From sequence record PX418923.1: a stretch of DNA of 50,008 nucleotides. One strand, given 5' to 3'. Source of the stretch: a phage. A program made the position numbers and the translations under genes. Positions 173 to 49,464 of this stretch are shown one piece after another; positions within the stretch are counted from its first letter, which is position 1, and each line of letters starts with the position of its first letter. Below the pieces are notes generated by a model. That model had not been told where the DNA came from and searched no databases. It saw only the letters and a list, made by a program, of their open reading frames with translations.

Positions 173-655
173 ATGGGACAAACCCTAGTTAAGATTTTGG
201 AGGAGGCAAAACAAGTTGAAGATTTGCCTAACATATATGTAACTCCTGAGGGCAGAGTGTTTAAAGTCCAGGAGCTGGCTTATAGCGATAATGGCAACGG
301 CTATATAACTTTTAAACATATGGTAAATGGTAAACAATACACCAGATACGTACATAGAGAAGTTGCTAAACTATTCTGTGAAAATCGAGACGATTCAAAA
401 ACAGTGGATCATATAGACGGAAATAAGTCTAATAATCACTATAAGAATCTCAGATGGTTTACGTTAGCTCAGAACGTCAGAGCGTACTTTAAAAAAGATT
501 ACGCCATATTATCCCCAAGAGGAGTACCATATTACTTTAGTAACATAAGAGAGTTTGCTGAGAAAAATGAGTTAGATTCTTCTTCTCTAACAAAAGTTCT
601 AAAAGGAAAACTTAGACACACTAAAGGTTGGAGGGCCTTACCAAAAGATGAGTAA
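173..655 (+). CDS. HNH homing endonuclease
   Basis: VDHIDGNKSNNHYKNLRW HNH motif; AGGAG RBS before ATG; C-terminal region resembles nuclease-associated DNA-binding modules. Confidence 0.7.
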   Translation: MGQTLVKILEEAKQVEDLPNIYVTPEGRVFKVQELAYSDNGNGYITFKHMVNGKQYTRYVHREVAKLFCENRDDSKTVDHIDGNKSNNHYKNLRWFTLAQNVRAYFKKDYAILSPRGVPYYFSNIREFAEKNELDSSSLTKVLKGKLRHTKGWRALPKDE

Positions 656-2363: not shown

Positions 2364-2863
2364 TGGTTGATGTGAAAGCTCGTAACCTGATTATGGACAG
2401 GTTCTTTAAGAACAACTACAATGAATTGGTAAAGCGTGTGTCGTTCCGTGCTGGTACTCCTGAGAACGCAGAAGACATTGTTCAAGAAGCTTTTGCCAGA
2501 GCATTGAAGTATTGGAACTCTTATGATCCAGAACGAAAAGAGTTGGGAGCTTGGTTCAATTCCATTCTCAATAATGCCCTTCGAGACTTTAAAAGGGACG
2601 AACGCCGGTATGGCATGTGTGAAGAATTCGATGAGGAAGAAATAGATGGAGTGGCACTCTCTCAAACTGAAAGTGGTCTACGAAAGTTTATTGACAGAGC
2701 TATCACCGAGCGTCCATCAAACGTTGCTGATATTCTCCATCTGTATTTTATCTTGGGCTATAAGCCTAGGGAAATTGTAGAAGTAACTGATGCTGACGCA
2801 GCTTTTGTTAGCCGCATGGTGTACAACTTTAGAGAAGAGTTGAAGGGACAAGTCAATGAGTAA
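2363..2863 (+). CDS. Sigma-70 family (ECF-like) sigma factor-like protein
   Basis: Region-2-like DIVQEAFARALKYW and C-terminal HTH-like region-4 segment (LGYKPREIVEVTDADAAFVSRMVYNFR); 166 aa. Confidence 0.5.
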   Translation: MVDVKARNLIMDRFFKNNYNELVKRVSFRAGTPENAEDIVQEAFARALKYWNSYDPERKELGAWFNSILNNALRDFKRDERRYGMCEEFDEEEIDGVALSQTESGLRKFIDRAITERPSNVADILHLYFILGYKPREIVEVTDADAAFVSRMVYNFREELKGQVNE

Positions 2864-3026
2864 GGTATATGTCCTATTTGAGGAAAGAGGGTTTGAATCT
2901 CCAGTCATAGTCGGTATTTATAAGAACAAAGATAAAGCCCAGGCAGAAGCTGATAAATGTAATGATAAAGCGCAATACCATTATGAACCGTATCAATATG
3001 TTAGGGAGCATGACCTAATTGATTGA
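2856..3026 (+). CDS. Small hypothetical protein (56 aa)
   Basis: ATG overlapping upstream stop; ends overlapping DNA polymerase start; below ORF-track size cutoff. Confidence 0.3.
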   Translation: MSKVYVLFEERGFESPVIVGIYKNKDKAQAEADKCNDKAQYHYEPYQYVREHDLID

Positions 3027-4875
3027 CATTTTTGACATTGAAGCTGATGGCTTGAAGCCTACTAAGATTCATTGTCTTTCTGTCATGAAGAATGGTAAAC
3101 TCTTTTCAACCACTGACTACGATAAGATGAGAGCGTTCTTTAGAAACGCTAAGATTATTGGTGGTCACAATATTTACAGGTATGACATTCCAAATATTGA
3201 GAGATTGTTAGGTATCAAAGTAAAGTGTAAACTTGTTGATACGCTACCACTCTCTTGGTATTTGGAGCCAGCTAGGAAGAGGCATGGCCTAGCTGAATGG
3301 GGTGAAGAGTTTGGTGTTCCTAAGCCGAAAGTCGATGATTGGGAAAACCTAGCCGTAGAGGAATATATACATCGATGTGAAGAAGACGTAAAGATTAACA
3401 CCAAACTGTGGGAACGCCAATGGAAACAACTCTTCAAGTTGTATGGTGAGCCAGATAAAGTTTGGAAGTTCATTGACTACATCATGTTCAAAATGGATTG
3501 TGCTGCTGAACAAGAGCGTAGTCGATGGAAGTTAGATGTAGTGCATTGTAAGACCACTTTAAAGAAACTAGAAAAGTTAAAAGAAGAAAAAGTAGAAGAG
3601 CTTAGATTGGCTATGCCTCCCGTGCCAGTAATGGCAAGTAAGGAAAAGCCTAAGAAGATGTATCTAAAGAATAAGCCAAACACTTTAAGCGAACAGGGGA
3701 AAGCTTGGGTTGCGTTGTTGAAAGAGCAGGGGCTGCCCGAAGATTACGAAGGAGTAGTTGAGTATATTAAGGATTGGAAGGAACCTAATCCTGGCTCACA
3801 CGAGCAAATTAAGTCTTGGTTGTACAGCCTAGGTTGGGTGCCAGAGACTTTTGCATATAAAAGAAACAAGGAAACTGGGGAAGTTAAGAAGATTGAACAA
3901 GTACAGCAAGATAAAACTCTTGGTCCTGGCTTGTGTGCTAGCGTTAAGAAGCTCTATGGTAAAGAGCCAAAGCTAGAAATTCTTGATGGACTCTCGATTC
4001 TAACTCACCGTATCTCCGTTCTAAACGGGTTCTTAAACAACGTGGATGATGAAGGTTATGTCCAAGCCAAAGTGCAAGGACTCACCAACACGTTGCGATT
4101 TAAGCATGAGGTGGTGGTCAACCTTCCGGGTGTTGACAAGCCTTATGGCGCTGATATACGTGGTTGCCTGGTTGCTCCTGAAGGTTATGAGCTGGTTGGT
4201 AGTGATATGAGCAGCTTGGAGGACAGATGTAAGCAACATTACATGTGGCCTTATGACCCTGAGTATGTCAAGGAGATGATGACTCCAGACTTTGATCCTC
4301 ACATTGACTTAGCGGTGTTTGCCAAAGCTCTAACTAAGCAACAAGCTGACGCTCATAAACGAGGGGAAGAAAACCACAAAGGCGTAAGGAAAACCTACAA
4401 GGCAGTTAACTACGCCGCCGTATATGGAGCTGGTGGTCCACGTGTGGCCATCACTGCTGGGGTAACCACGGATGAGGGGTACAAACTGGTAGATGCGTAT
4501 TGGCAACGTAACTGGTCAGTCAAACGTATTGCTGAAGACCAGATAGTTAAGGTGTGCAATGGAATGAAGTGGTTGTTCAATCCAGTTAGTGGATTCTGGT
4601 ACAGCTTACGTCATGAAAAAGATAGGTTCTCAACACTAAACCAAGGTACGGGAGTTTACTGTTTCGATACATGGATATGCAATTTTAGAAAGAAGCGACC
4701 TCAACTAACTGGTCAAATGCACGATGAAGTTATTTTGTGCATTAAGAAGGGTTACAGAAAGCAAGCTGAAAAGCTTCTTCGTGACGCAATTGAAGAGACA
4801 AACAAACAACTTAAATTAAACAGAGAGTTAGATATCTCCGTACAATTCGGTGATAGATACTCAGACATTCACTAA
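3019..4875 (+). CDS. Family A DNA polymerase (T7 gp5-like)
   Basis: N-terminus MIDIFDIEADG...KIHC resembles T7 DNA pol exonuclease motif I; polymerase motifs DMSSLEDR (A), RKTYKAVNYAAVYGAG (B), HDEV (C); TTG start directly after in-frame stop. Confidence 0.9.
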   Translation: MIDIFDIEADGLKPTKIHCLSVMKNGKLFSTTDYDKMRAFFRNAKIIGGHNIYRYDIPNIERLLGIKVKCKLVDTLPLSWYLEPARKRHGLAEWGEEFGVPKPKVDDWENLAVEEYIHRCEEDVKINTKLWERQWKQLFKLYGEPDKVWKFIDYIMFKMDCAAEQERSRWKLDVVHCKTTLKKLEKLKEEKVEELRLAMPPVPVMASKEKPKKMYLKNKPNTLSEQGKAWVALLKEQGLPEDYEGVVEYIKDWKEPNPGSHEQIKSWLYSLGWVPETFAYKRNKETGEVKKIEQVQQDKTLGPGLCASVKKLYGKEPKLEILDGLSILTHRISVLNGFLNNVDDEGYVQAKVQGLTNTLRFKHEVVVNLPGVDKPYGADIRGCLVAPEGYELVGSDMSSLEDRCKQHYMWPYDPEYVKEMMTPDFDPHIDLAVFAKALTKQQADAHKRGEENHKGVRKTYKAVNYAAVYGAGGPRVAITAGVTTDEGYKLVDAYWQRNWSVKRIAEDQIVKVCNGMKWLFNPVSGFWYSLRHEKDRFSTLNQGTGVYCFDTWICNFRKKRPQLTGQMHDEVILCIKKGYRKQAEKLLRDAIEETNKQLKLNRELDISVQFGDRYSDIH

Positions 4876-4886
4876 GGTGATATAGT

Positions 4887-5051
4887 ATGACAAAACTTAC
4901 TGAGGAAGATGTAGAGCTGCTTAGAGCTTATGAAAACGGAGAACTAGAATATTGGGACAGTGGTAACTATGATGACGGTTTCAAAATGGGAATTAATGTT
5001 GGCTATGCACTCGCACTAAGAGAAATGGAAGAAGAAGGAGAACAAAACTAA
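4887..5051 (+). CDS. Small acidic hypothetical protein (54 aa)
   Basis: AAGGTGA RBS then ATG; stop overlaps next start (TAATG). Confidence 0.35.
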   Translation: MTKLTEEDVELLRAYENGELEYWDSGNYDDGFKMGINVGYALALREMEEEGEQN

Positions 5052-5773
5052 TGGCACTTAAAGCACGTAACATTCCGAAAGCTGGTGGCAAGGGTAGTGG
5101 TATGCCCAAACAACCTACTATGGAGCCGGGAACTTATCCGTCCCGTGTAGTACAAGTAATTGATATGGGCCTGCAACCACAGCGTCCTTATAAAGGTGAG
5201 CCAAAGAATCCGGCTTATGAGCTGATGGTCACGTATGAATGTCTTGATGAGTTCTGCGTAGATGAGAACGGTGTTGAAATGGAAGATAAGCCTCGTTGGA
5301 TTAGTGAGACTTTCCCTCTTCATAACATCGAAGCGGACCTTGCTAAGTCCACTAAACGCTACAAAGCTCTTGACCCTGACATGGTATATGATGGCGATTG
5401 GGGTGAAGTAGTAGGCACTCCGTGCATGGTTACCACCGTTAACAATGTTAGTGGTGATAATGTATACACCAACGTAGCTTCTGTCACTAGCATGCGTGCT
5501 CGTGATGCAGCTAAAGCTCCTGAGCTTATTAACGAGCCCAAGGTGTTTAGTCTTGATGAACCTGATGTGGATGTGTTCCGTTCCTTCCCTCAATGGATTC
5601 AGGACAAAATCAAAGGCAACCTAGAGTATGATGGTAGTGCCCTTCAGAAAGCCCTGGAAGGGGCTCCTAAGCAAGAAGAGAAGAAGGGTAAGGCTAACCC
5701 TAGGGTGGAGGAAGAAAACGCTCAGGAAGACTTCGTAGACGACGTACAAGGGGACGAGGACGTACCATGGTGA
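5051..5773 (+). CDS. Putative ssDNA-binding protein (gp2.5-like, acidic C-terminal tail)
   Basis: Position between polymerase and exonuclease; strongly acidic C-terminus ending in an aromatic residue (EDFVDDVQGDEDVPW); function inferred. Confidence 0.4.
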   Translation: MALKARNIPKAGGKGSGMPKQPTMEPGTYPSRVVQVIDMGLQPQRPYKGEPKNPAYELMVTYECLDEFCVDENGVEMEDKPRWISETFPLHNIEADLAKSTKRYKALDPDMVYDGDWGEVVGTPCMVTTVNNVSGDNVYTNVASVTSMRARDAAKAPELINEPKVFSLDEPDVDVFRSFPQWIQDKIKGNLEYDGSALQKALEGAPKQEEKKGKANPRVEEENAQEDFVDDVQGDEDVPW

Positions 5774-5940
5774 TCTATGTATGGCCTGATGGCTATTGGT
5801 TGTACGAATGGGCAGTAGAGGATAATGCCAGTCTTGCGAGGCTGGCTAGTCCTCACAAGAAGATTGATCTAGACAATCATCTAGACTACAATCTCACTGT
5901 AGATGAAATTAACGCATGTATTGAGGCATTGGATGAGTAA
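5767..5940 (+). CDS. Small hypothetical protein (57 aa)
   Basis: ATGGTGA start-stop overlap with upstream gene; ends at TAA 5938-5940. Confidence 0.3.
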   Translation: MVIYVWPDGYWLYEWAVEDNASLARLASPHKKIDLDNHLDYNLTVDEINACIEALDE

Positions 5941-6244
5941 GAAAATTGTTAATGTTGGTGACTTCGTAGAGGTATTGGATAGCAGCTTTGTTGAACATGG
6001 CGTCAAGAAGGGTGACTTCATTTACATTGCTGGTGACAGTATCGTAGCTGTTAGTGAGAAAGACCCTTACCAACTTCGTCGGCTGTTCGTAGCTGCATTC
6101 ATGGAAGATGGTCACATCTTGGCAGATCGTAAACCTTTCCTTATTGATGGTAAGCGTTGTAAGCCTGTTTCTGAAGCTAAACAACAGAAGTTTGCAGAGA
6201 AGATGAAACAAGATTTCGGTGAAAAGAATGAAGCCTCTAATTGA
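5933..6244 (+). CDS. Hypothetical protein
   Basis: ORF-track ORF 5903-6244; internal ATG at 5933 has GAGG RBS. Confidence 0.45.
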   Translation: MSKKIVNVGDFVEVLDSSFVEHGVKKGDFIYIAGDSIVAVSEKDPYQLRRLFVAAFMEDGHILADRKPFLIDGKRCKPVSEAKQQKFAEKMKQDFGEKNEASN

Positions 6245-7100
6245 TGGTGACATTCTTCTATACGAAATTGGAAACAGTGCGGAGTATATTGATGAGAACG
6301 GTGAGAAAGTTATTCGTGACTTTGAGTTTGCTGGCAATCTTATCGATCAAAAGATCAAAGAAATTTGTGCCGAAGTGTGGGCTACTGAAGAGCCAACTAT
6401 CTTTATCACCAACAATCGTCGCATCCACAAGAAAGTCAATAGGCAACGTAAGTCTGAAGGAAAACCGCTTGTCGAATATGTTCCTAACTTTAGAGAAAGC
6501 ATAGCTAAGAAAAAGGAATATAAAGCAGGTCGTAACCCTGAGAAACCTTTTCACTATGACAATTTGTTAGTCTATCTATTGGCTAACTATGAATGTGAGA
6601 TGGCTTTCGGTATGGAAGCTGACGATCTAATGTCCATCAAGCAATGGGGGAGAGTAAAGGATGGTCATCTAGACACCATCATTTGTACCCGAGATAAGGA
6701 CCTACGGATCACCCCAGGTATGCACTTTGGATGGGAGTGTGGTCGTCAAGTCCAATATGGTCCAGCTCGTGTCACTGAGCTGGGTGAGATTAGAATTACC
6801 AAGGATAAGAAAAAGATAATTGGCAATGGACTTAAATTCTTCTATTCCCAACTTGTCACAGGAGATTCTACAGACAATATCCCCGGAGTACCAGGAGGTG
6901 GTCCTGTCACTGCTTTCGAATCCGTTCATGACGCCGAAAGCGAAGTTGAGTTGTTTGAGAGAGTGGGAGCACTATACAAAGATAAGTATGGGGACAACTG
7001 GGAAGCAGAAATGAGGGAGCAAGCTGACTTGCTTTGGATGGTAAGAGAGCTTAATGAAGACGGCTCTCCTGTAATGTATAAGTGGCCAGAGGTAAATTGA
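6228..7100 (+). CDS. 5'-3' exonuclease (T7 gp6-like, FEN/PIN fold)
   Basis: LIDGDILLYE, EADD, TRDKDL and GVPGGGPVTA motifs typical of flap/5'-3' exonucleases; ATG at 6228 with GGTGA RBS. Confidence 0.8.
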   Translation: MKPLIDGDILLYEIGNSAEYIDENGEKVIRDFEFAGNLIDQKIKEICAEVWATEEPTIFITNNRRIHKKVNRQRKSEGKPLVEYVPNFRESIAKKKEYKAGRNPEKPFHYDNLLVYLLANYECEMAFGMEADDLMSIKQWGRVKDGHLDTIICTRDKDLRITPGMHFGWECGRQVQYGPARVTELGEIRITKDKKKIIGNGLKFFYSQLVTGDSTDNIPGVPGGGPVTAFESVHDAESEVELFERVGALYKDKYGDNWEAEMREQADLLWMVRELNEDGSPVMYKWPEVN

Positions 7101-7525
7101 TGGCAGGAAGACCAAGCGGAGATAAAACTAGATGTGACGGTCAGTGGACAGAAGCGAAATTTCGATCATTCATTAAGAATAACCTAAGAGGTACGTCCAG
7201 AAAGTGGGCTCCTATTCAGAAGTGTAAGAAAAATGCTAATGTCTCTAGAGGTCTTTACGAGTGTGCTGAATGTAAAGAGCATGTACCTCCAACCGTATAT
7301 GATGAAGATAAACGTAAACGCGTAACCAACATCTTCGTAGATCACATCGAACCAATTATTGACCCAGCGGTGGGGTGGGTAAGTTGGGACAGCACAATCG
7401 ACCGCATGTTTTGTGACTCAAGTAACCTACAACTTCTTTGTAGGAAATGTCACAGTATTAAGTGTCAAGAAGAAATTGACATTACTAAAGAACGACGCCA
7501 AAAGGAAAAGAATAGTGAAGAATAG
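7100..7525 (+). CDS. HNH endonuclease
   Basis: VDHIEP...NLQLLCRKCHSIK HNH motif; ATG at 7100 overlaps exonuclease stop. Confidence 0.75.
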   Translation: MAGRPSGDKTRCDGQWTEAKFRSFIKNNLRGTSRKWAPIQKCKKNANVSRGLYECAECKEHVPPTVYDEDKRKRVTNIFVDHIEPIIDPAVGWVSWDSTIDRMFCDSSNLQLLCRKCHSIKCQEEIDITKERRQKEKNSEE

Positions 7526-11085: not shown

Positions 11086-11900
11086 CAAAATAGGGCGGCC
11101 TTTTCAAGAGATTGAAATTGAATAACTAACCTAAAAACGGGGAAGGGTTACTGACCTAATCCCGTGCTAACTCGCTATGAGATGTGTAACGACTATGAAA
11201 ATTAAAGACAAAAAAGAACTAATTAAGCTCATTTCCTTCATCACCATGGGTGATGGGTCTGTCTATAGGAACCGTGGTGCAGGCAACTGTCTGTTCTCCT
11301 TTTCCCAAACTGAAGACCACAAAGACTTCGTAGATTATGTGGGTTCCATCATCTCCAATATCACGTCTTACAAGGTTGTGGTAGATGAGAGAGAGGCACC
11401 AAGGAAATCTCTGCTTAAGTTGTGCACTCCTGTACATCCATACTTCAACAAACTGCGTGACCGGATTTATGTAGACTCCTACAAATCCATTGATCCACAT
11501 GCGTTGAAGATGTTAGACTTTGAAGCGTTAGCTATTTTGTATATGTGCGACGGTTGTTTGGGTAAGAGTATGAATTCGAACGGCTCTGTTGCTCGAACAG
11601 TGACACTTAACTTGTGCAGACTCTCCTACGGAGACCAGCTTCTACTGAAGAAGGCTCTTAAAGAAAAGTTAGACCTGGAATGGAACGTCGTTAAAACTGG
11701 TGGTAAATACCTGACTTTGCGTTTGCGGATGAAAGATTTCGACAAATTCATGCATGGTATCGAGCCATATATGCAAGAAAGCTTCCGATATAAACTTGAA
11801 ATTCGTACGGTTAGCCCCGAGAAATCGGGTGGTGAGATAGTCTGATCTATGTGGCAACACATAGGAGCCTGGCAGAAATGTCCAGGACATGAACGATATG
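11086..11900 (+). mobile_element. Group I intron in nrdB carrying a LAGLIDADG homing endonuclease ORF
   Basis: 5' exon ends in U (11085), intron ends in G (11900); the splice restores frame (codon T+TC=Phe) giving a 322-aa NrdB; intron contains P3-P7-like AAACGGGGAA...AAUCCCGUGCUAA and 3' GAGAUAGUCUG plus GNRA hairpin. Confidence 0.6.
11177..11845 (+). CDS. LAGLIDADG homing endonuclease (intron-encoded)
   Basis: Two LAGLIDADG-type motifs (LISFITMGDGSV and LAILYMCDGCLG). Confidence 0.8.
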   Translation: MRCVTTMKIKDKKELIKLISFITMGDGSVYRNRGAGNCLFSFSQTEDHKDFVDYVGSIISNITSYKVVVDEREAPRKSLLKLCTPVHPYFNKLRDRIYVDSYKSIDPHALKMLDFEALAILYMCDGCLGKSMNSNGSVARTVTLNLCRLSYGDQLLLKKALKEKLDLEWNVVKTGGKYLTLRLRMKDFDKFMHGIEPYMQESFRYKLEIRTVSPEKSGGEIV

Positions 11901-41654: not shown

Positions 41655-42590
41655 ATGAAACGGGAACACTACCAAATTGCCCTTAAGGCTCGTAAAGTCT
41701 TTCGTGAAATTCTTGTAAAAAAGAAAAAATATAATGGCCTGTGCTGTGTCCGTGACGGCGCGATGGCTTCTGTAGCTGCCGTATACCTAAATGATGAGGC
41801 GTACAAGAATCACTTGTTGATTAGCACTAACCAAGCTTGTCATGCTGGTCTACAATCACTACACACCGGCTCTGTCGCTGTAATTAGTGGCCTGCAACCA
41901 AAATACAAAGGCAACTTGATTGATAAAGAAGAGGGTGTAGCGTTCCTTGATTGGCTGCTTAATCGTAGCCCGTATAGCGAGGTGTTTGTCACTAAGTCTG
42001 CTAAAGACGCAATCAAGAACAGTTGTATCATTGCAGACTCTAACTATCCATCTAATCTACTGGCGGCTGGTCTTGTCGCTTCCCGTCGTCTTTGGGAGTA
42101 CAGCGAGATTGTTATTGTATGGTATGACTTGGTGAAGGCTGGTATGAATGAAGACCTAGCCTACTGGGTTGCGCATAAAGCTCAATGCAGAAGCAACAGA
42201 ACAGGAAACATTAGTTTCACTGGTTGCCAGTCTGGCCACTGCTCTATGAATCCGAACCTTTTTGATAGAGAAGCACTTAAAGCATGGCTCAATCATAAAG
42301 TAGTAAATCCCAATCAGACTTACAGTCAATCAACACATTACAATTACTATGATAGGATGTACTCTAATCTTGGTAAGTTGAAAGGTGCGGGCTATTGGAT
42401 GGGGACACCTGAAGACAGCATTGGTTATTGGTTAGATAACGATTTTGATCCAAAGAAAAAAGATGGTGTGAATAACAACCCGTTTATTAAGGCACTTCCG
42501 AAAGTTAAAGGTGCTTGTAAATACGCCGATGGCATTAAAGCTATGGCTGAATTTGAAAAGAAAATTATGGAGGAAGTAAATCGTGCCTAA
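41655..42590 (+). CDS. Hypothetical protein (311 aa), possibly part of the downstream amidoligase cluster
   Basis: Stop overlaps the start of the class-I amidotransferase-like gene. Confidence 0.5.
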   Translation: MKREHYQIALKARKVFREILVKKKKYNGLCCVRDGAMASVAAVYLNDEAYKNHLLISTNQACHAGLQSLHTGSVAVISGLQPKYKGNLIDKEEGVAFLDWLLNRSPYSEVFVTKSAKDAIKNSCIIADSNYPSNLLAAGLVASRRLWEYSEIVIVWYDLVKAGMNEDLAYWVAHKAQCRSNRTGNISFTGCQSGHCSMNPNLFDREALKAWLNHKVVNPNQTYSQSTHYNYYDRMYSNLGKLKGAGYWMGTPEDSIGYWLDNDFDPKKKDGVNNNPFIKALPKVKGACKYADGIKAMAEFEKKIMEEVNRA

Positions 42591-43203
42591 AGTACATATC
42601 ATCAACAGTAGTGACGAATACGTGCACATGTTTGGTAAGATGGGTTGGGAAGTTGTTGGCATCAAAGACTTCTTCAATGCTGATCTCATCCAATTTACTG
42701 GCGGTTCCGACGTAACTCCCATGCTGTATGGGGAAAGCCTGCACCCCAAGACTTATTGCAGCCAACGTCGTGATTTGGAAGAAGCAGGCTACTTTGCATT
42801 TGCTCAACGTTGCTCCATTCCTATGGCTGGCCTCTGTCGAGGCGGTCAGTTCCTTAACGTTATGAATGGTGGTAAGATGTTCCAACATGTTGATGGGCAT
42901 GCCACTGGTCGAAACCACATTCTGTTTGATCGGTTCACTAACAAGTCTTGTAATGTAACCTCTACTCACCATCAAATGATGATCCCACATTATAGTGGTG
43001 AAGTCATTGCAATCGCACATGAGGCTAAAGTCAAGGAAAGTTATGGCACTACCTTCCCCAGCGGTGGTGATGATGTAGAGGTAGTATATTATGACAAAAC
43101 CAAATCGTTGTGCTTCCAACCACACCCCGAGTTTTATCACGCTGACAGTACTCGTGACTATTACTTTGAACTTCTCGAACGTTATTTGGGGCTGTCCGCA
43201 TAA
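42583..43203 (+). CDS. Class-I glutamine amidotransferase-like / peptidase C26 (gamma-glutamyl hydrolase-like) protein
   Basis: Catalytic Cys motif G-L-C-R-G-G-Q and C-terminal HPE; GTG start with GGAGGAAG RBS. Confidence 0.6.
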   Translation: MPKVHIINSSDEYVHMFGKMGWEVVGIKDFFNADLIQFTGGSDVTPMLYGESLHPKTYCSQRRDLEEAGYFAFAQRCSIPMAGLCRGGQFLNVMNGGKMFQHVDGHATGRNHILFDRFTNKSCNVTSTHHQMMIPHYSGEVIAIAHEAKVKESYGTTFPSGGDDVEVVYYDKTKSLCFQPHPEFYHADSTRDYYFELLERYLGLSA

Positions 43204-43254
43204 GCTCGAATAATGCGATGGGCAATGGTTTGAATTTCTGCTAGAAAAATTTTT
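43202..43254 (+). promoter_or_regulatory. Conserved repeated element, copy 3 (AAGCTCGAATAATGCGATGGGCAATGG...GAATTTCTGCTAGAAAAATTTTT)
   Basis: Lies between the C26-like gene stop and the GGAGG RBS of the next gene. Confidence 0.4.
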
Positions 43255-43266
43255 GGAGGTTTATTT

Positions 43267-43458
43267 ATGCACAGTGGTTGTGATGGGGAACACACCCTAT
43301 TACTATTGTGTAGGCAATGTCAGTGCAAGTTTTATTGGGGCACTGTCTATCATGGAATCAGTGAGCTAACTAAATGTCCAAACATTGTTTGCAAAGCGAG
43401 CGGAAGTAAATCTTTCATAATTCAACAGAGAATCCATAACGGAACTTTGGTTAAATAA
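43267..43458 (+). CDS. Small Cys-rich zinc-ribbon protein
   Basis: CDGEH...CRQCQC...CPNIVC; GGAGG RBS. Confidence 0.45.
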   Translation: MHSGCDGEHTLLLLCRQCQCKFYWGTVYHGISELTKCPNIVCKASGSKSFIIQQRIHNGTLVK

Positions 43459-43493
43459 CTAAGCAACCTCGTCGAGGTTCGGAGGATAAAATT

Positions 43494-44825
43494 ATTTGCG
43501 GTCTAGTTGGCGTTGCTGGCGGTATTACTTTTAACTTGGAAAAGGTTTTTAAGAACCTTCTTCAACTCGATACTATTCGTGGTCCTCATAGCACTGGTGT
43601 GGCTATGGTTCGAACTAATGGTGACAATAAAACTGTAAAGAAGTTGGGCACCCCTTGGGAAGGGCTGTTCGACAGTAAGGATTTTGAAGAGTATCTGAAA
43701 GGTGGCTCTTTTAACGTATTGCTTGGACACAATCGGTGGGCGACTAAAGGTAAAATCAATGCCAAGAACGCTCACCCGTTTGACTTCGATACTTTGGTAG
43801 GCGCTCATAACGGTACTCTTCGATCTGTTCGTGATCTGGACGATCATGAGAAGTTTGAGGTAGATAGTGAAAATATCTATCATCATATGGAACGTAATGG
43901 TGTTGCAGACACTATCAAACTCCTTGATGGTGCGTTCGCACTAACTTGGTATAACAAAGAAGAGAGTACGATTAATTTCATTCGCAACAATGAACGTCCT
44001 CTTTACTATTGCTTGACCGAGGATAGGAAAGCCATCATCTGGGCAAGTGAAGATTGGATGATTGAAGTTGCTTGTGGTATGGCTGGTCAGAAGTTTGGTG
44101 AAATTTTCTCTCTTCCGATTGGTGTTCACTTCACTTTCGACATTACACTTGGCTCACCTTACCAGTACAAACCTCTGGAAAAATGCCGTACTCGAAAGTT
44201 GGAGCTGCGTCAAAATTTTCAGAAAGCCGTAGTGGCATCTACTACCTCTACGGCTACTAACAACGTATTCAAGTCGTCCGAGTCTTCGGTGGGAAAGTCC
44301 GTCCCGGCAGCAGGTTTCATGGAGTACCAGAGGTTTGTAGGAAAGTCGTGCGACTTTTACGTCGACAGGGTAGCGACTAACAACTATAACCAAAAGTATC
44401 TGCAATGCTGGGCTTGTGACAACGACTTGGTCTCTATTCGTTGTTATGCCGGTGAAGGTAGTGAGCTTTGGATGAAGATGGTTAACTCTGCTAACTTCTT
44501 CAGAGCGCATGTTAAATCTTTCAGCACTTCTGAAAAAGGTTATTTGACTATTGATCTTCGCACAGTAGAAGAGCTAGCGGAGAAGGAAGAAGAGGAACCT
44601 ACAGAACAAACTGATGATACTCCGCCTGAAATGTATGTTGTGTATGGGGGAGAAGTGGTAAGTCGTGTTGTCTACGAGCAACGCACGGAGAAATGTTGTT
44701 CATGGTGCAGCAGTCCTGTAGATGAGACAGACGCAAATGATCTTGTGTGGCTTGATAAACACACTTTTGTTTGCGGTAGTTGTAAAGAGTTTTCTGAAGT
44801 TAAACAATATCTTAAACTTGCATAG
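43494..44825 (+). CDS. Class-II glutamine amidotransferase (Ntn-hydrolase) domain protein with Cys-rich C-terminal domain; probable ATT start
   Basis: (M)CGLVGVAGG N-terminus, HNRWATKG, GAHNGTL, DSE, LDGAFAL; GGAGGA RBS 7 nt before ATT 43494; no synthetase domain. Confidence 0.65.
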   Translation: MCGLVGVAGGITFNLEKVFKNLLQLDTIRGPHSTGVAMVRTNGDNKTVKKLGTPWEGLFDSKDFEEYLKGGSFNVLLGHNRWATKGKINAKNAHPFDFDTLVGAHNGTLRSVRDLDDHEKFEVDSENIYHHMERNGVADTIKLLDGAFALTWYNKEESTINFIRNNERPLYYCLTEDRKAIIWASEDWMIEVACGMAGQKFGEIFSLPIGVHFTFDITLGSPYQYKPLEKCRTRKLELRQNFQKAVVASTTSTATNNVFKSSESSVGKSVPAAGFMEYQRFVGKSCDFYVDRVATNNYNQKYLQCWACDNDLVSIRCYAGEGSELWMKMVNSANFFRAHVKSFSTSEKGYLTIDLRTVEELAEKEEEEPTEQTDDTPPEMYVVYGGEVVSRVVYEQRTEKCCSWCSSPVDETDANDLVWLDKHTFVCGSCKEFSEVKQYLKLA

Positions 44826-44834
44826 GTAAATAAA

Positions 44835-45698
44835 ATGAGTCTGAACATTCTGGTTGGCGCTGATCCGGAAATCTTCATGATGAAAGACGGCAAATACGTA
44901 TCAGCACACGGTGCTATTCCTGGCAATAAGAAGGAACCTTTCAAAGTTGAGAAAGGTGCTGTCCAAGTAGATGGCATGGCATTGGAGTTTAACATTGATC
45001 CTGCTAAAAACGAAAAAGAGTTCGTACGTAACCTCACTACGGTAATGTCTACCCTCAAGGGTATGGTGCCTGGATTCGAATTGAATCCCTCTCCGGTTGC
45101 TGAATTCGGTTTCGATTATATCAAGGGTCAACCTGATGAAGCGAAGGAGCTTGGGTGTGAGCCTGACTTCAACGCTTATGAAAACGGTGCAGCTAATCCT
45201 CGTCCCAATGCTGAAGTAGACTTCCGTACTGGTGCTGGTCACGTACACATTGGTTGGGGAAATGACATTGATATCAGTGATCCTGACCACATTGAGGCGT
45301 GCTGCATGGCAGCAAAACAACTCGACTATTACCTTGGGTTGCCCAGCCTTCTTTATGATAAGCAAGTTAAGCGTCGTACTCTTTATGGTGCTATGGGAGC
45401 ATTCCGTCCTAAGCCGTATGGTGTCGAGTACCGAGTGTTGTCCAACGCTTGGTTGAAAGATGAAGCACTTATGAAGTGGGTATTTAAAAACACTGTGCTT
45501 GGCATCAAAAAACTCCTTGAGGGTAAGCCTGCTTACGATAAGGACTATGATACCACTGTTAGGGAGCTTGGCGTGTCAGCTAAACCTAATGAATACCACC
45601 TAGCGTGGCTCCTTGGTAAAAACAAAATCCCTATGCCGCCTGGATTTGTATTGGTTGAAGGATGCTTCCCTGGGGATTATGTTATCAAGCAGGTGTAA
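44835..45698 (+). CDS. Amidoligase-like protein (glutamine synthetase-like COOH-NH2 ligase), paralog A
   Basis: GADPEIF, GAGHVHIGWG and R...YGAMGAFRPKPYGVEYR motifs, parallel to the protein at 46245. Confidence 0.5.
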   Translation: MSLNILVGADPEIFMMKDGKYVSAHGAIPGNKKEPFKVEKGAVQVDGMALEFNIDPAKNEKEFVRNLTTVMSTLKGMVPGFELNPSPVAEFGFDYIKGQPDEAKELGCEPDFNAYENGAANPRPNAEVDFRTGAGHVHIGWGNDIDISDPDHIEACCMAAKQLDYYLGLPSLLYDKQVKRRTLYGAMGAFRPKPYGVEYRVLSNAWLKDEALMKWVFKNTVLGIKKLLEGKPAYDKDYDTTVRELGVSAKPNEYHLAWLLGKNKIPMPPGFVLVEGCFPGDYVIKQV

Positions 45699-45699
45699 C

Positions 45700-46248
45700 A
45701 TGAATATGTATGGTGATGATTGGCAATATGCAGACTCCCGACTTAACAATACTATTGTTAGGCATGAAGGTAAGGGAGTCCTTGTTAACAAGGTGATGAA
45801 GAAAGGAGCCCTGATCACTTCTCTTCGAGGTGGTGACGGTAATGTTGTTAACCTTGATGACCTAGACTTGACTCCTGTAAAGCTAGGTTTTGCCAATATT
45901 GGCAATACAATCTCTTACCTTACTCGTATGCCAATGCGTAGGGATTGGAGACAAGGGCTCCGAGTTGGGAACTTCACTTCAGTATACGGCACTCCTGCCG
46001 GTCTAGTTAACTACAATGCGTTAGCAGATACTATTGAAGGCATCTACCCAACTTTGCAAGAGTGTGTTGATTCGTCAGCTAGAGTATTGAAAGCTTGGTG
46101 TAGGGAGTGGGCTGTCGGTAATAGTAAGTTGAAAAATAACAGACCACTCATTTACAAAAACCTAATTGTTGGTTGTGTGAGAGACGGTAATCCAGAACTG
46201 AGCGGTGAGTTCATGTTTCTTCGAGAAGCACTACAGGAGGTGCTATGA
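45700..46248 (+). CDS. Hypothetical protein within the amidoligase cluster
   Basis: ATG right after upstream stop; overlaps next start. Confidence 0.45.
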
Positions 46249-47192
46249 AAACTGTAATGCAGTGGTTCGGCATTCAACTACCTACCAAGGGTGACGTTGG
46301 TGTCGAGATTGAGGTGGAGGGCAAGAATTTGCCCAAAGCTTTTGATAGATATTGGCGAGTAGAGGCTGACGGTTCTCTTCGTGGTGAAGATAACGCAGAG
46401 TATGTCCTAGAGAAGCCTATGACTCTTCGTCAAGTTAAGCTTGCCCTAAGTCACCTTAACATGCAATACAAGAAGAACAATTCAGTTGTTGATGACACGG
46501 TACGTGCTGGTGTTCATGTACATATCAACGTTCAACAACTGAACATTGTAGAGCTTTATAACTTTATGACGCTCTACCTTACTCTTGAGGAACTTTTGGT
46601 TAAGTTCTGTGGTCCATATCGAGAAGGTAATTTGTTCTGCCTCCGTGCTTGTGATGCAGAATGGTTGTTGTTCAGACTGTCAGAGGCAGCACGGACTCGA
46701 CAGTTTAGACGCATTCTGACTGATGATAATCTTCGCTACGGCTCTATGAACGTTAAGGCTTTGGGTACGTATGGTAGTCTTGAGTTCCGTGCTATGCGTG
46801 GCACTCGTGATTTAAACCTCATTCATAAGTGGGCTAATATTCTTGTTGATCTTCGTGAAGCTGCTAAGAAGTTTACTGATCCTAAAGATATTATCAACAG
46901 CTATTCTGAGGGTGATTATGTAGCGTTCCTTAATAAATGTCTTGGTGAGCATGTAGAGTTGTTTAAGGACTACGACAACGTACCCAAGATGTTGAACGAT
47001 GGTATGCGACGAGCACAGGACATTGCTTTCTGTTGTGATTGGCAACAGTTCTTCCAAGAAGAAATTGTTCCGCCTGCCCCAGCACCGAGAAAGAAAGTTC
47101 TTAACTATGATTTTGATCCCATTGCGTTCTTTGGTGAAGTACCAAAAGAAATCTTCCCACCGATTTGGGTTGAAGAAGGAGTGCCGTTCTAA
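46245..47192 (+). CDS. Amidoligase (glutamine synthetase-like COOH-NH2 ligase), paralog B
   Basis: [42 protein letters not shown] motifs; GGAGG RBS. Confidence 0.55.
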
Positions 47193-47944
47193 TGTTTATC
47201 TATGCGTACAATAATGCCAGCAAGGCTGGTAAGCAAATCAGGGACATGCTTAATGTAAAATTTATTAAGCATAAAAACTCTAAGTTCAAAGGCTCCCCAG
47301 ATAAAGTGGTGATTAACTGGGGTAGTAGCAATCTTCCAGAAGAAGTTCTTAAGTGTACGGTTGTTAATGCCTCTGTAGCCGTCTCCAGGGCCGCTAACAA
47401 GCGTTCTTTCTTCGAGGCAATGGTAGGGCATGCCCGTACACCAGAATTCACTACAGACAAAGCTGAGGCCCTTAAATGGGTGGATGGTGGAAACACTGTA
47501 GTGTGTCGTACTTTGCTAAATGCAAACAGTGGTAAGGGTATTGTACTTGTAGGGCCAGGTGATGGTGAGCTTGTCGATGCACCTCTGTACACTAAGTATG
47601 TGCCCAAGAAACAAGAGTGGCGAATCCATGTGTTCCGTGGTGAGTGTGTAGACATTCAAAGAAAAGCACGTAAGAAAGATGTTCCTGATGAAGAAGTGAA
47701 CTGGAAGATTAGGAACATTGGTGGTGGTTTTATCTTTGCACGCAACGAAGGAATTAAACCTCATGAAGACATTATTGAACAAGCTATTAAGGCTGTTGAA
47801 GCCTGTGGACTTGACTTCGGCGCAGCAGACGTCATCTTCAATGAGAAAGAACAGAAAGCCTACGTGTTGGAAGTCAATACAGCTCCGGGAGTTGATGGCA
47901 CAACGCTCGAAGGTTATGTCAAAAGATTTAAGGAGTTGAAATGA
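47192..47944 (+). CDS. ATP-grasp ligase (RimK-like)
   Basis: WRIHVFRGE and C-terminal YVLEVNTAPG motifs. Confidence 0.65.
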   Translation: MFIYAYNNASKAGKQIRDMLNVKFIKHKNSKFKGSPDKVVINWGSSNLPEEVLKCTVVNASVAVSRAANKRSFFEAMVGHARTPEFTTDKAEALKWVDGGNTVVCRTLLNANSGKGIVLVGPGDGELVDAPLYTKYVPKKQEWRIHVFRGECVDIQRKARKKDVPDEEVNWKIRNIGGGFIFARNEGIKPHEDIIEQAIKAVEACGLDFGAADVIFNEKEQKAYVLEVNTAPGVDGTTLEGYVKRFKELK

Positions 47945-48198
47945 GCAAGCACATTAACAGCACTAAACTCACAGAAACTCTAACACTCTCGGAGTGCAGA
48001 GACGGATTTTGGCTATATGACTATACTCGCGGCATGAACCTAAGCATGCGAGCAAAAACGCCACAGGATGCCTTCGTAGAGTGCATTTCCTACTACCAGA
48101 AACGACTCGCCGAAGTAGAAAGTGAATACCGTGAACTAACGGCCAAGGTAGACGCCTTTGTAGGCCAGTTTGTTGAAGACTGTGAGGAGTGGAGATGA
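47941..48198 (+). CDS. Hypothetical protein
   Basis: ATGA overlap with ATP-grasp stop. Confidence 0.45.
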   Translation: MSKHINSTKLTETLTLSECRDGFWLYDYTRGMNLSMRAKTPQDAFVECISYYQKRLAEVESEYRELTAKVDAFVGQFVEDCEEWR

Positions 48199-49112
48199 GC
48201 AAGGAACTGGACAAGGCACCGGTAAGGCAGGCAGGCGGAGATGCGCGCAAACTGTCAGACCTCGGTAACGAATTGCACAACCTTTCGTGCTCGATCATTC
48301 ACGAAAACGAGGAATGGGCTGAACAGATCGGCGGCACTGGCGAAGCCGATTCCGGTGGCGTCCGCCCATGGGGAGAGCCGGTCTTGATCCCCTGTGACTG
48401 CGAGACAGAGCAGGCAGAGCCGGAACTGGAGCCGCATATACCTGCACAGAACATCGCTGAGGCCGCAATAGAGCAGTTGATTAAGTCTGGCGCCAAACAC
48501 TATCAGGAATTCCATTTCGACCTCCACCTTGATGGTCAGGAAGGGGCACGCCCTGTTGTCGTGACAGTAGCGTTTTCTGATGGGCCGTCTGCGCACGAAC
48601 TACGCATGAAAGCAGAGCAAGAGCGCGACGCCGCTCTGGCCGAAGTCGAGCGCCTGCGTGAGTCAAAAGGTGACCCTGTTGGCAGCCTCGAAAAGTGCAT
48701 GAAAGTGATGTACGAGCGCGACGAAAACGCTAAGCGGCTGGAAGTCGCCCTGGCCATGGCCGAGGCCGCAGCAGCAAAGGGAGATGCTGCTCGCCAGCAA
48801 TGCGGCGGAATGGAGAGGGAGATCGAGGAACTTCGCGCCGAGGCCCAGGCGCTGGGGCGCATCGTCGACAAGCTGACGCAGTACAACGAGAGTCTTTACG
48901 AAGAAAATACACGACTGCTTGCGGATTGTGAGAAGATCGACAGGGAAGTCGCAGCACTGCGCGCAAAGTTATCAGACCTGCCCGGATGGTTACGGGTTGC
49001 TTACTCGTGGGGTTACATAGGTGGGCAGAACAACCCTAACGGGTACCTTGACGAGGAGAATCGTGATAATTGTGTCAATGAAATCCTTGTTCGTAACCAC
49101 ATCATTACATAA
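48195..49112 (+). CDS. Coiled-coil protein in a compositionally foreign high-GC segment
   Basis: GC-rich codons (GCC, CTG, CGC) unlike the rest of the genome; Ala/Glu/Arg-rich heptad-like sequence; ATGA overlap at start. Confidence 0.5.
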   Translation: MSKELDKAPVRQAGGDARKLSDLGNELHNLSCSIIHENEEWAEQIGGTGEADSGGVRPWGEPVLIPCDCETEQAEPELEPHIPAQNIAEAAIEQLIKSGAKHYQEFHFDLHLDGQEGARPVVVTVAFSDGPSAHELRMKAEQERDAALAEVERLRESKGDPVGSLEKCMKVMYERDENAKRLEVALAMAEAAAAKGDAARQQCGGMEREIEELRAEAQALGRIVDKLTQYNESLYEENTRLLADCEKIDREVAALRAKLSDLPGWLRVAYSWGYIGGQNNPNGYLDEENRDNCVNEILVRNHIIT

Positions 49113-49164
49113 GGAGATTGTATGAGAAACAACAGTAGTAATAAGTCCCAACATAAGGAGAGTT

Positions 49165-49464
49165 ATGAAAGTATTGATTGAGAGTATCAAACGCTGGGCT
49201 AGTGACAGAAATTTGGTTGAAGGCAGCACGCCTAAAGATCAATGCCTTAAACTCATTCAAGAAGTTGGAGAGCTTAGTGACAGTTTGTGTAAAGGTAAAC
49301 CAGCCATTGACGACATTGGCGATTGTATGGTGGTACTAATCATTCTAGCTGAGCAACTTGGATTGTCTGTAGAGGATTGTCTGTATCATTCCTATCAAGA
49401 AATTAAAGACCGTAAAGGTCGAATGATTGATGGCGTATTTGTCAAGGAGCAAGATTATGTATGA
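49165..49464 (+). CDS. mazG: MazG-like nucleotide pyrophosphohydrolase
   Basis: EVGEL and DIGD acidic motifs of the small MazG-like all-alpha NTP-PPase family; GGAGAG RBS. Confidence 0.6.
   Translation: MKVLIESIKRWASDRNLVEGSTPKDQCLKLIQEVGELSDSLCKGKPAIDDIGDCMVVLIILAEQLGLSVEDCLYHSYQEIKDRKGRMIDGVFVKEQDYV

Follow-up and report, generated by a model that had tools for sequence, protein, structure and literature searches.

A phiEco32-type amidoligase module in a Pseudomonas phage, with predicted amide-ligating and gamma-glutamyl-cleaving enzymes and an apparent AUU-started glutaminase gene

What would a phage do with a whole cluster of genes for making and breaking amide bonds? The question is raised by sequence record PX418923.1, a stretch of phage DNA of 50,008 nucleotides (nt) that was analyzed at its full length (the window), and in particular by positions 41655 to 47944, where co-oriented plus-strand genes lie just upstream of the replication genes. 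The region is one more copy of the phiEco32-type phage amidoligase module, a comparative-genomics prediction of 2009. The conserved module consists of X, C26, GAT-II, CNL, Y, AL2 and ATP-grasp: three ligases (the COOH-NH2 ligase CNL, the Amidoligase_2 protein AL2 and the ATP-grasp ligase), two enzymes of kinds that cleave glutamine-type amides (the Peptidase C26-like protein and GAT-II, a class-II glutamine amidotransferase), and two proteins without known relatives (X and Y). Our best explanation as a whole, which we consider quite possible but tentative, is that the module carries out stepwise amide ligation and gamma-glutamyl removal on a macromolecular target and is accessory to phage growth.

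The cluster is real, but its limits had to be redrawn. An initial annotation described seven back-to-back, mostly overlapping plus-strand open reading frames (ORFs) between 42583 and 47944, and all seven are present, with gaps of 1 to 10 nt or overlaps of 1 to 8 nt. Its family calls (C26/GATase class I, class-II GATase, amidoligases and ATP-grasp) agree with profile searches and motifs. A small zinc-ribbon ORF that it counted as a member is, however, an insert, and the core member X was left out. The annotation had also pointed to a comparison of gene neighborhoods across phages, and this comparison returned an identical gene order in 80 of 80 related viral contigs. Thus, the cluster is not a chance arrangement. 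The 80 contigs were retrieved from IMG/VR with the CNL profile, among at least 587 matching stretches, and their genes were called with home-built hidden Markov models. Y and CNL were found in all 80 loci, GAT-II and AL2 in 79 each, ATP-grasp in 73, C26 in 72, X in 60 and the cyclotransferase GGACT in 13, always on one strand. The order X, C26, GAT-II, CNL, Y, AL2 was fixed, and only ATP-grasp moved or was duplicated. Recurrent downstream neighbors were genes for a primase/helicase (71 loci), a DNA polymerase (71), a sigma factor (55) and a protein resembling single-stranded DNA-binding protein (SSB; 50). Clustering of the other ORFs in these loci yielded no further recurrent family, carrier or precursor peptide inside the module, and no fusions between module families were found.

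Pfam names PF14395, the family of CNL, "Phage phiEco32-like COOH.NH2 ligase-type 2" after the phiEco32-type module. The gene neighborhood was reportedly described by Iyer, Abhiman, Burroughs and Aravind in 2009 (Mol Biosyst), in work that is also said to be the source of PF14395 and of PF12224 (Amidoligase_2). This is the association of enzyme families from comparative genomics to which the initial annotation referred, as PMC10580990, citing Iyer et al. 2009, bears out. Like the phiEco32-type module, the region contains COOH-NH2_lig, Amidoligase_2, GAT-II and ATP-grasp genes, and its orthologues occur in the same relative order in phiEco32-, LUZ24- and 7-11-like phages, upstream of a helicase gene. 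Unlike that module, the present Zobellviridae version has C26 and is without the AIG2/GGACT cyclotransferase, its GAT-II gene precedes the ligase genes, its GAT-II and ATP-grasp proteins are shorter, and X and Y are recognizable in the other lineages by structure or weak profile similarity only. The phiEco32-type system itself is known as a prediction only.

The module is widespread. At the DNA level, matches to the cluster are confined to Pseudomonas phages, with identities of about 95% (PPAT and FBPa8), 94% (PP21) and 90% (PA11 and TC6). TC6 is classified in Zobellviridae, Paundecimvirus, and the source is a PA11/TC6-like Pseudomonas podophage of that genus. At the protein level, CNL was found by tblastn in 318 of 50,697 deposited phage records, including 121 from phages of Pseudomonas, 94 of Escherichia and 22 of Vibrio, as well as phages of Aeromonas, Proteus, Salmonella and Cronobacter and one crAss-like phage. 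Orthologues of CNL, GAT-II and ATP-grasp occur together in Zobellviridae (TC6, GP100, CVT22, Pecta and CW02) and in LUZ24-, phiEco32-, 7-11- and crAss-like phages. An AL2 orthologue was present in every annotated neighborhood examined except that of the crAss-like cr108_1, where the GAT-II match is weak (1.3e-5) and a 486-amino-acid (aa) protein matches Pfam Amidoligase_2 instead.

How the module would form amides is indicated by its three ligases. CNL (44835-45698; 287 aa), of the glutamine synthetase (GS)/GCS carboxylate-amine ligase superfamily, matches PF14395 (3.4e-10, 40 bits against a cutoff of 25) and phrog_3815 (9.2e-95) and is the ortholog of the phiEco32-like Bas91_0081 protein (4.6e-33). 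Its invariant residues include D10-P11-E12, Q44, D46, E51, GC.PD, R131-T132, H136, H138, R180, Y184-G185, R191, E198 and R200. AL2 (46245-47192; 315 aa), a GS-like ligase whose gene is the second after that of CNL, as in 79 of the 80 loci, matches PF12224 (1.9e-7, 31.7 bits against 22) and phrog_7469 (1.5e-127); its ratio of nonsynonymous to synonymous substitution (dN/dS) relative to TC6 is 0.02, and E21, E23, E25, DGSLR, E52, H91, H93, R126, N169, E180 and R182 are invariant. The initial annotation had noted parallel E-x-E, G-x-HVH-I and R...Y/F-G...G...E-x-R motifs, and indeed GxHVHI and R..YG...G..E-x-R occur in both ligases and are conserved. CNL and AL2 thus carry the Glu/His/Arg constellation with which the superfamily binds metal and phosphate, and they are likely ATP-dependent ligases that work via an acyl-phosphate. 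To call them amidoligase paralogs was an overstatement, as they fall into different Pfam families (PF14395 and PF12224) and their profile-profile comparison was not significant; they are best regarded as distant superfamily relatives rather than close paralogues. Profile searches of solved structures with CNL and with AL2 gave no match.

The third ligase, ATP-grasp (47192-47944; 250 aa), matches phrog_2599 (3.1e-100) and a phiEco32-like homologue (1.3e-41). Among NCBIfam models it matches MptN (8.4e-11, 41.5 bits against a cutoff of 350) and rimK_fam (6.8e-5, 22.4 against 143), and its Pfam matches also lie below the cutoffs (R2K_2, 21.7 against 26.2 bits; RimK, 15.5 against 21). The D...ExN motif (AADV...LEVNTAPG) is conserved in nine homologues and LEVNTAPG, by which the protein had been recognized as an ATP-grasp ligase, is invariant. 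The protein is therefore an ATP-grasp of the general RimK/MptN type but not demonstrably a member of any named family.

AL2 also carries a Pro-rich, acidic C-terminal tail (47157-47192) with Phe as its last residue. The tail is variable in sequence and often ends in F, Y or W; relatives end in ...PLPLPPVWIDEVPF and ...EFPNEPLEDY. The last residue is F, Y or W in 93 of the 120 nearest AL2 clusters, and across the 80 loci an aromatic last residue is about 10 times commoner in AL2 (36/76) than in the other module proteins (22/469). A similar acidic, aromatic-ended tail is found on an SSB-like protein of 240 aa (5051-5773; phrog_862, "unknown") that is encoded between DNA polymerase/endonuclease and exonuclease genes and ends in ...DFVDDVQGDEDVPW (final residues GDEDVPW). 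Homologues of the SSB-like protein have an aromatic end in 35 of 48 loci, mostly after an acidic run and a proline (D/E-rich-x-P-[WYF]). The 5051-5773 product is probably the phage SSB, and a few records name its family a putative single-stranded DNA-binding protein. The AL2 tail could be a docking peptide for X or for Y, which has an SH3-like fold, or for a partner that binds SSB tails.

GAT-II (43494-44825; 443 aa) is a stand-alone enzyme of the class-II (Ntn) type. The protein matches GATase_6 (2.9e-16), phrog_18128 (4.6e-250) and a GlmS-like glutaminase (5e-14), and its dN/dS relative to TC6 is 0.05. Its Cys1 aligns with Cys1 of GlmS, and RWAT (NRWAT), HNG, D-S-E (VDSE) and RGPHSTG are conserved. 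Homologues were found in phiEco32-like, LUZ24-like and 7-11-like phages, at 2e-36 to 2e-38 and 1e-32. No known synthase domain is present in GAT-II, and its synthase partner may be one of the ligases. The C-terminal region of about 240 aa is instead a family-specific domain: among 1.84 billion representatives, just 156 clusters match its 243 aa. Almost all of these are proteins of about 350 to 500 aa with the matched portion at the C-terminal end, and no Pfam domain was found there in 40 members. The domain ends in a four-Cys zinc ribbon, and C402, C405, C427 and C430 are invariant.

How GAT-II acquires its N-terminal nucleophile depends on an unusual start codon. The initial annotation called a class-II GATase with an N-terminal Cys and no synthetase domain; the family and the lone domain hold, but the Cys exists only if translation begins at ATT 43494. 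The ATT (43494-43496) directly precedes the Cys1 codon TGC (43497-43499) and sits 8 nt past a GGAGG Shine-Dalgarno sequence (the whole element spans 43481-43499), and no ATG, GTG or TTG lies in frame upstream. The mechanical start of the ORF, TTG 43536, would drop the nucleophile Cys, and FBPa8 GAT-II is annotated from the downstream TTG. The codon that immediately precedes the catalytic Cys was compared in 74 members of the family; it is ATG in 44, ATT in 15, ATC in 7, TTG in 6 and GTG in 1. Thus ATT or ATC is found in 22 of 74 (about 30%), 17 of these being without a canonical upstream start and 21 having a Shine-Dalgarno motif. Relatives have TTG or ATG at exactly the position of the ATT, and the E. 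coli kuravirus Bas91 likewise has ATT before the Cys. ATT codons at the extrapolated start positions of other module genes proved to be an artifact, with a canonical ATG two codons downstream each time. From these comparisons, recurrent AUU/AUC initiation appears to be specific to the GAT-II gene. We note that a perfect palindrome, AACCTCGTCGAGGTT, lies at 43465-43479, immediately 5' of the GGAGG; FBPa8 has it as well, and O4 shares its 3' arm.

C26 (42583-43203; 206 aa, GTG start) is a class-I GATase or Peptidase C26-like protein and a candidate gamma-glutamyl-amide hydrolase. It matches Peptidase_C26 (1e-15, 58.6 bits against a cutoff of 20.5), GATase class I (5.5e-5) and phrog_7218 (5.9e-68). 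The motifs of the Cys-His-Glu triad that had been read from the sequence, GxCRGxQ (here GLCRGGQ) and HPE, are kept in six of six aligned homologues. The closest solved relatives are 3fij and 7d4r, weak NCBIfam matches are to gamma-glutamyl-CDP-amidate hydrolase and PuuD, and dN/dS relative to TC6 is 0.12. Either C26 or GGACT is encoded in every one of the 80 loci that is not cut upstream. The phiEco32- and LUZ24-like loci examined have GGACT, and no C26 homologue was detected in them; conversely, tblastn of two GGACT proteins against the window gave no match below E 0.6. With GGACT in just 13 of the 80 loci, the Zobellviridae version does not strictly require it. C26 and GGACT are not strict alternates, however, as both are present in Salinivibrio phage CW02. 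We note that CW02 (235-7521) has the fullest module, with C26, GAT-II, CNL, Y, AL2, ATP-grasp and GGACT, and that tblastn places its X homologue at the opposite end of the linear record (48515-49348).

The remaining conserved proteins, X and Y, belong to no catalogued family. X (41655-42590; 311 aa), whose gene and that of C26 share 8 nt, is conserved along with the cluster and thus is a core member of the module. Its invariant residues include Cys62-His63, His195 and several Arg, Glu and Trp. The structure of X was predicted with a pLDDT of 85 and a pTM of 0.88; its best structural matches, both weak, were PafA and Dop, and Foldseek against viral models linked it to uncharacterized proteins of module-bearing Aeromonas, Proteus and Cronobacter phages. 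The X profile had no match among solved structures, and profile-profile comparison of X with either ligase was not significant. We also observed variants of X of up to 671 aa (450 to 670 aa in many marine and metagenomic relatives) with beta-rich N-terminal repeats or extensions. These extensions carry a GDxVxV-like signature that resembles SH3/KOW barrels, and thereby the fold of Y; a Pfam search of them returned nothing significant. Y (45700-46248) is non-enzymatic looking and always lies between the two GS-like ligases. The ORF, initially described as a protein of unknown function, is real, but its start was corrected to ATG 45700, giving 182 aa. Y is predicted to fold as tandem SH3-like barrels, KOW/Tudor-like, with a basic loop. 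Its position equivalents in other lineages are about 200 aa long and resemble it weakly. When X and Y were compared by hhalign with the position-equivalent proteins of the phiEco32, LUZ24, 7-11 and crAss lineages, the results were mostly negative, the sole weak match being between Y and a LUZ24-like protein (probability 26%).

One ORF inside the cluster lies outside the conserved module. The Cys-rich, zinc-ribbon-like ORF of 63 aa (43267-43458), which has GGAGG before its ATG, matched no family in any library searched, and no counterpart family recurred in the 80 loci. The segment 43204-43490 matches PPAT and FBPa8 only, and PA11/TC6-type relatives have different ORFs there. The ORF is therefore a lineage-specific insert found in the closest relatives only, rather than a member of the module. 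The possibility that it is a LysW-like carrier was ruled out, as its end (...NGTLVK) is not acidic and the ORF is not conserved.

Whether the phage needs the module can be judged from its evolution and from its relatives. Relative to TC6, all module genes have a dN/dS between 0.02 and 0.20, with the synonymous sites of X saturated, and are thus under purifying selection. Nucleotide identity to TC6 is 64% for X, 73% for C26 and 91 to 96% for CNL through ATP-grasp, and DNA similarity to PA11/TC6 starts exactly at the GAT-II start codon. The divergence of X and C26 and the abrupt onset of similarity suggest that the module is mosaic, with a recombination junction near 43490. In FBPa8, the CNL gene (3753-4250 of the FBPa8 stretch, the counterpart of 44835-45698 of the window) has an in-frame internal deletion that leaves 165 instead of 287 aa and removes the catalytic C-terminal half, including R180, E198 and R200. 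FBPa8 is an isolated and propagated phage; its relatives have genomes about 5 kb longer. In directed evolution, two independent lines of a P. aeruginosa phage each acquired missense changes in its amidoligase and GAT-II genes (PMC11450229), and mass spectrometry of the phiEco32-like phage SU10 identified ATP-grasp, GAT-II, a YtfP/GGACT-like protein and a 23-kDa hypothetical protein as early products (PMC4281155). The module is accessory, because viable FBPa8 has a deleted ligase gene, and the missense changes of the evolved lines point the same way. Taken together, the SU10 products, the dN/dS values, FBPa8 and the evolved lines indicate that the module is expressed and under selection but not required for basic growth.

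How the enzymes might work together can be proposed with good confidence at the level of enzymology. The ligases would activate carboxylates as acyl-phosphates and form amides stepwise, with glutamate as a building block. ATP-grasp would most likely add L-glutamate, because its nearest enzymes (RimK, MptN and CofF) add L-glutamate. GAT-II would either supply glutamine-derived ammonia to one of the ligases or, like EgtC, hydrolyze an N-substituted glutamine. C26, with GGACT also or instead in other lineages, would then strip the gamma-glutamyl group and free the amine, such that gamma-glutamylation would serve as a transient activating or protecting step, by the logic of the Puu/Pau and butirosin pathways. 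The initial proposal of a stepwise-built amide or gamma-glutamyl conjugate remains the best reading, given C26 or GGACT in every complete locus and an ATP-grasp of RimK/MptN type, but the product cannot be named from sequence.

Known pathways parallel parts of this scheme. Like PuuA/PuuD of E. coli, PauA/PauD of Pseudomonas and the gamma-glutamylanilide and isopropylamine pathways, the module encodes a GS-superfamily ligase together with a C26 Cys-His-Glu hydrolase. Unlike Puu/Pau, its ligases are of PF14395 and PF12224 and not Gln-synt_C, it has no linked oxidative steps, and GAT-II, ATP-grasp, X and Y are extra. In synthesis of the butirosin side chain, the ATP-grasp enzyme BtrJ adds a gamma-glutamyl group and the gamma-glutamyl cyclotransferase BtrG later deprotects. 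ATP-dependent gamma-glutamyl addition followed by GGCT/AIG2-type removal is a shared theme, with GGACT in the module of many lineages, but here there is no acyl-carrier protein, pyridoxal-phosphate-dependent decarboxylase or acyltransferase, and the removing enzyme would be C26. In the ergothioneine pathway, the GCL-type ligase EgtA is paired with EgtC, a stand-alone class-II GATase that acts as a gamma-glutamyl amidohydrolase. The module similarly pairs a GCS-superfamily ligase with a Cys1 Ntn GAT-II that has no synthase domain, but EgtB, EgtD and EgtE are absent here, and the phage GAT-II has its own C-terminal domain of about 240 aa with a four-Cys ribbon. Protein-directed relatives are RimK, LysX and PafA. 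As in modification of S6 by RimK, the ATP-grasp is of RimK/MptN type, and as with PafA and Dop, one cluster holds two GS-fold ligases, and X weakly matches the PafA and Dop structures. The PafA/Dop/Pup system differs in that no Pup_ligase Pfam match is found here, nor a Pup-like substrate gene, the hallmark of Pup being a small disordered protein with GGQ or GGE at its C terminus. Unlike LysW/LysX, the module has no LysW-like substrate gene, as the 63-aa zinc-ribbon ORF lacks an acidic C terminus and is absent from most relatives.

What the module modifies is harder to say. We hold it possible, with some reserve, that the enzymes act on a macromolecule during the replication phase, most likely on a protein, whether of the phage or of the infected cell. 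Y and X would be specificity or scaffold subunits, and the Pro-rich, acidic, aromatic-ended AL2 tail would be a docking peptide. A macromolecular target is suggested because Y and X are conserved without belonging to a catalogued enzyme family, because the tail is specific to AL2, because the module holds no conserved gene for a carrier or precursor, and because the module always lies in a replication-phase block. Moreover, the known substrate of GGACT is epsilon-(gamma-glutamyl)-lysine. Burroughs et al. 2015 proposed that phage R2K.2 ATP-grasp enzymes modify host proteins (PMC4431377), although the ATP-grasp here is below the R2K_2 cutoff. We infer that the benefit to the phage would be conditional, either fitness that depends on host or condition or counter-defense, and not needed for basic propagation. 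Several points weigh against our explanation as a whole. The literature searched mentions the module in genome descriptions and Aravind-group predictions only, and no biochemical or genetic study of any member was found in it. No solved or characterized relative of CNL or AL2 is detectable by profile, and the ATP-grasp is under every curated family cutoff, such that addition of glutamate is an analogy. Small molecules are the usual substrates of C26, GGACT and GAT-II enzymes, a point in favor of a metabolite, and Y and X could merely hold a metabolic complex together. The tails of AL2 are heterogeneous, and neither the SSB tail nor the Y loop clearly covaries with them. Finally, the definers of the module, Iyer et al. 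2009 as cited in PMC10580990, proposed modification of the cell wall.

That proposal, restated in PMC10580990 and PMC11706807, leads to an alternative that we consider rather unlikely. Here the enzymes would build or amidate a free peptide-like compound, or else a peptidoglycan or polysaccharide precursor in the cytoplasm with gamma-glutamyl or free carboxylate groups on it, and the envelope would be altered, for example to block superinfection. The nearest annotated types are indeed enzymes of cell walls and cofactors, namely the GlmS-like glutaminase (5e-14), Ddl/RimK/MptN-like ATP-grasp and PuuD- or gamma-glutamyl-CDP-amidate-hydrolase-like C26, and C26 and GGACT normally cleave small gamma-glutamyl amides. 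Glutamine-dependent amidation of peptidoglycan carboxylates (MurT/GatD and LtsA/AsnB1) is, moreover, established chemistry. The module is found, however, in strictly lytic phages whose hosts have very different envelopes (Pseudomonadota and, for crAss-like phages, Bacteroidota), and a putative archaeal virus is reported to have the amidoligase and GATase families. The 80 loci show no transferase, flippase or sugar-nucleotide gene beside the module, which lies within the replication block and not in a lysis or envelope block, and Y, X and the AL2 tail would be left unexplained. The small molecule might instead be a cellular amine such as a polyamine, gamma-glutamylated and de-glutamylated in the manner of PuuA/PuuD or PauA/PauD so as to be neutralized, sequestered, remodeled or salvaged for nitrogen; we regard this as quite improbable, and equally so its suggested aims of DNA condensation or evasion of polyamine-based threat sensing. 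A pair of GS-superfamily ligase and C26 hydrolase is the hallmark of the Puu/Pau, aniline and isopropylamine pathways, C26 weakly matches PuuD (0.008) and the P. aeruginosa "probable glutamine amidotransferase" 7d4r (3e-4), and a universal small amine would suit the very broad host range. But CNL and AL2 are not of the Gln-synt_C/PuuA type, three ligases and GAT-II exceed the need, no oxidase, dehydrogenase or transporter gene is linked in the 80 loci, and every similarity is far under the family cutoffs.

Modification of nucleic acid, whereby glutamate- or ammonia-derived groups would be placed on a base of phage DNA or of RNA such as tRNA against nucleases, seems very doubtful. Replication genes are always next to the module, genes for amidoligases and amidotransferases occur together with thymidine-hypermodification genes on metagenomic contigs (PMC8989533), and CmoY offers a precedent for an ATP-dependent amide ligase that acts on DNA (PMC12783734). 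The zinc ribbon of GAT-II, the KOW/Tudor-like fold and basic loop of Y, and the likeness of the AL2 tail to that of the SSB-like protein are also in keeping with a nucleic acid target, but the AL2 and SSB tails do not covary. No gene for a dUMP/dCMP hydroxymethylase, 5-HMUDK, aGPT-Pplase, DpdA, TET/JBP or CmoA/CmoX was found in the window, where most of the larger plus-strand ORFs are accounted for and the small early ORFs were partly scanned, and the ThyX that is present makes ordinary dTMP. The nucleobase hypermodification offered as an option by the initial annotation thus found no supporting gene among the ORFs accounted for. Furthermore, DNA from phage tf, which bears the module, can be digested with HaeIII and ligated with T4 ligase (PMC3517423), and FBPa8 is viable with its CNL deleted. 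We speculate, finally, that the module may be a replication-phase modification machine, in which AL2 would be docked by its tail to Y or X, or to the replisome in the fashion of SSB, the ligases would install and C26 or GGACT would trim a glutamate-derived adduct on a replisome-associated protein or nucleic acid, the outcome would be a widely distributed, condition-dependent counter-defense, and the AUU/AUC start would set the dose of glutaminase. We consider this combination improbable. Stepwise amide ligation and gamma-glutamyl removal on a macromolecular target remains the account that we prefer.

The rest of the window places the module in context. The window has the appearance of a complete genome of about 50 kb in permuted form. 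On the plus strand, 0.6 to 14 kb encode primase/helicase, a phage sigma factor, DNA polymerase, exonucleases, ThyX, PhoH and ribonucleotide reductase (the last assigned partly via the TC6 annotation). Structural and lysis genes are on the minus strand, and small early ORFs lie ahead of the cluster. Immediately 3' of ATP-grasp, 47941-49112 holds an ORF of 85 aa and a coiled-coil (SMC-like) ORF of 307 aa in GC-richer sequence with many overlapping ORFs on both strands. The TC6 counterpart is a single gene of 449 aa, and the region is variable and outside the module. Three homing-endonuclease genes, two HNH and one LAGLIDADG, lie at 173-655, 7082-7525 and 11177-11845 amid genes of replication and nucleotide metabolism. 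Directly 3' of the LAGLIDADG ORF, the ORF of the small subunit of ribonucleotide reductase covers only the C-terminal two-thirds of the Pfam model, and the gene appears to be split. PADLOC detected no similarity to defense systems, Rfam and tRNA scans gave no match, and a promoter and terminator scan gave no excess over shuffled sequences.

The phage carries a new copy of a known, predicted and widespread module. The module is common and occurs in unrelated phage groups: therapeutic phages of P. aeruginosa (PA11- and LUZ24-like), E. coli kuraviruses, Salmonella 7-11-like phages and a crAss-like gut phage. A 50-kb phage invests heavily in keeping seven or eight conserved genes. Standard gene callers overlook an AUU/AUC start, whereby the active-site Cys is lost from annotations of GAT-II; its recurrence in the glutaminase gene also makes noncanonical initiation open to test here, as a topic in its own right. 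The window offers practical handles, with a tractable host, a natural ligase knockout in FBPa8 and clear catalytic residues to mutate. Ultimately, knowing the product would bring to light either a new metabolite of phages or a new way of modifying macromolecules, and two orphan ligase families, along with two orphan folds, would gain a function.

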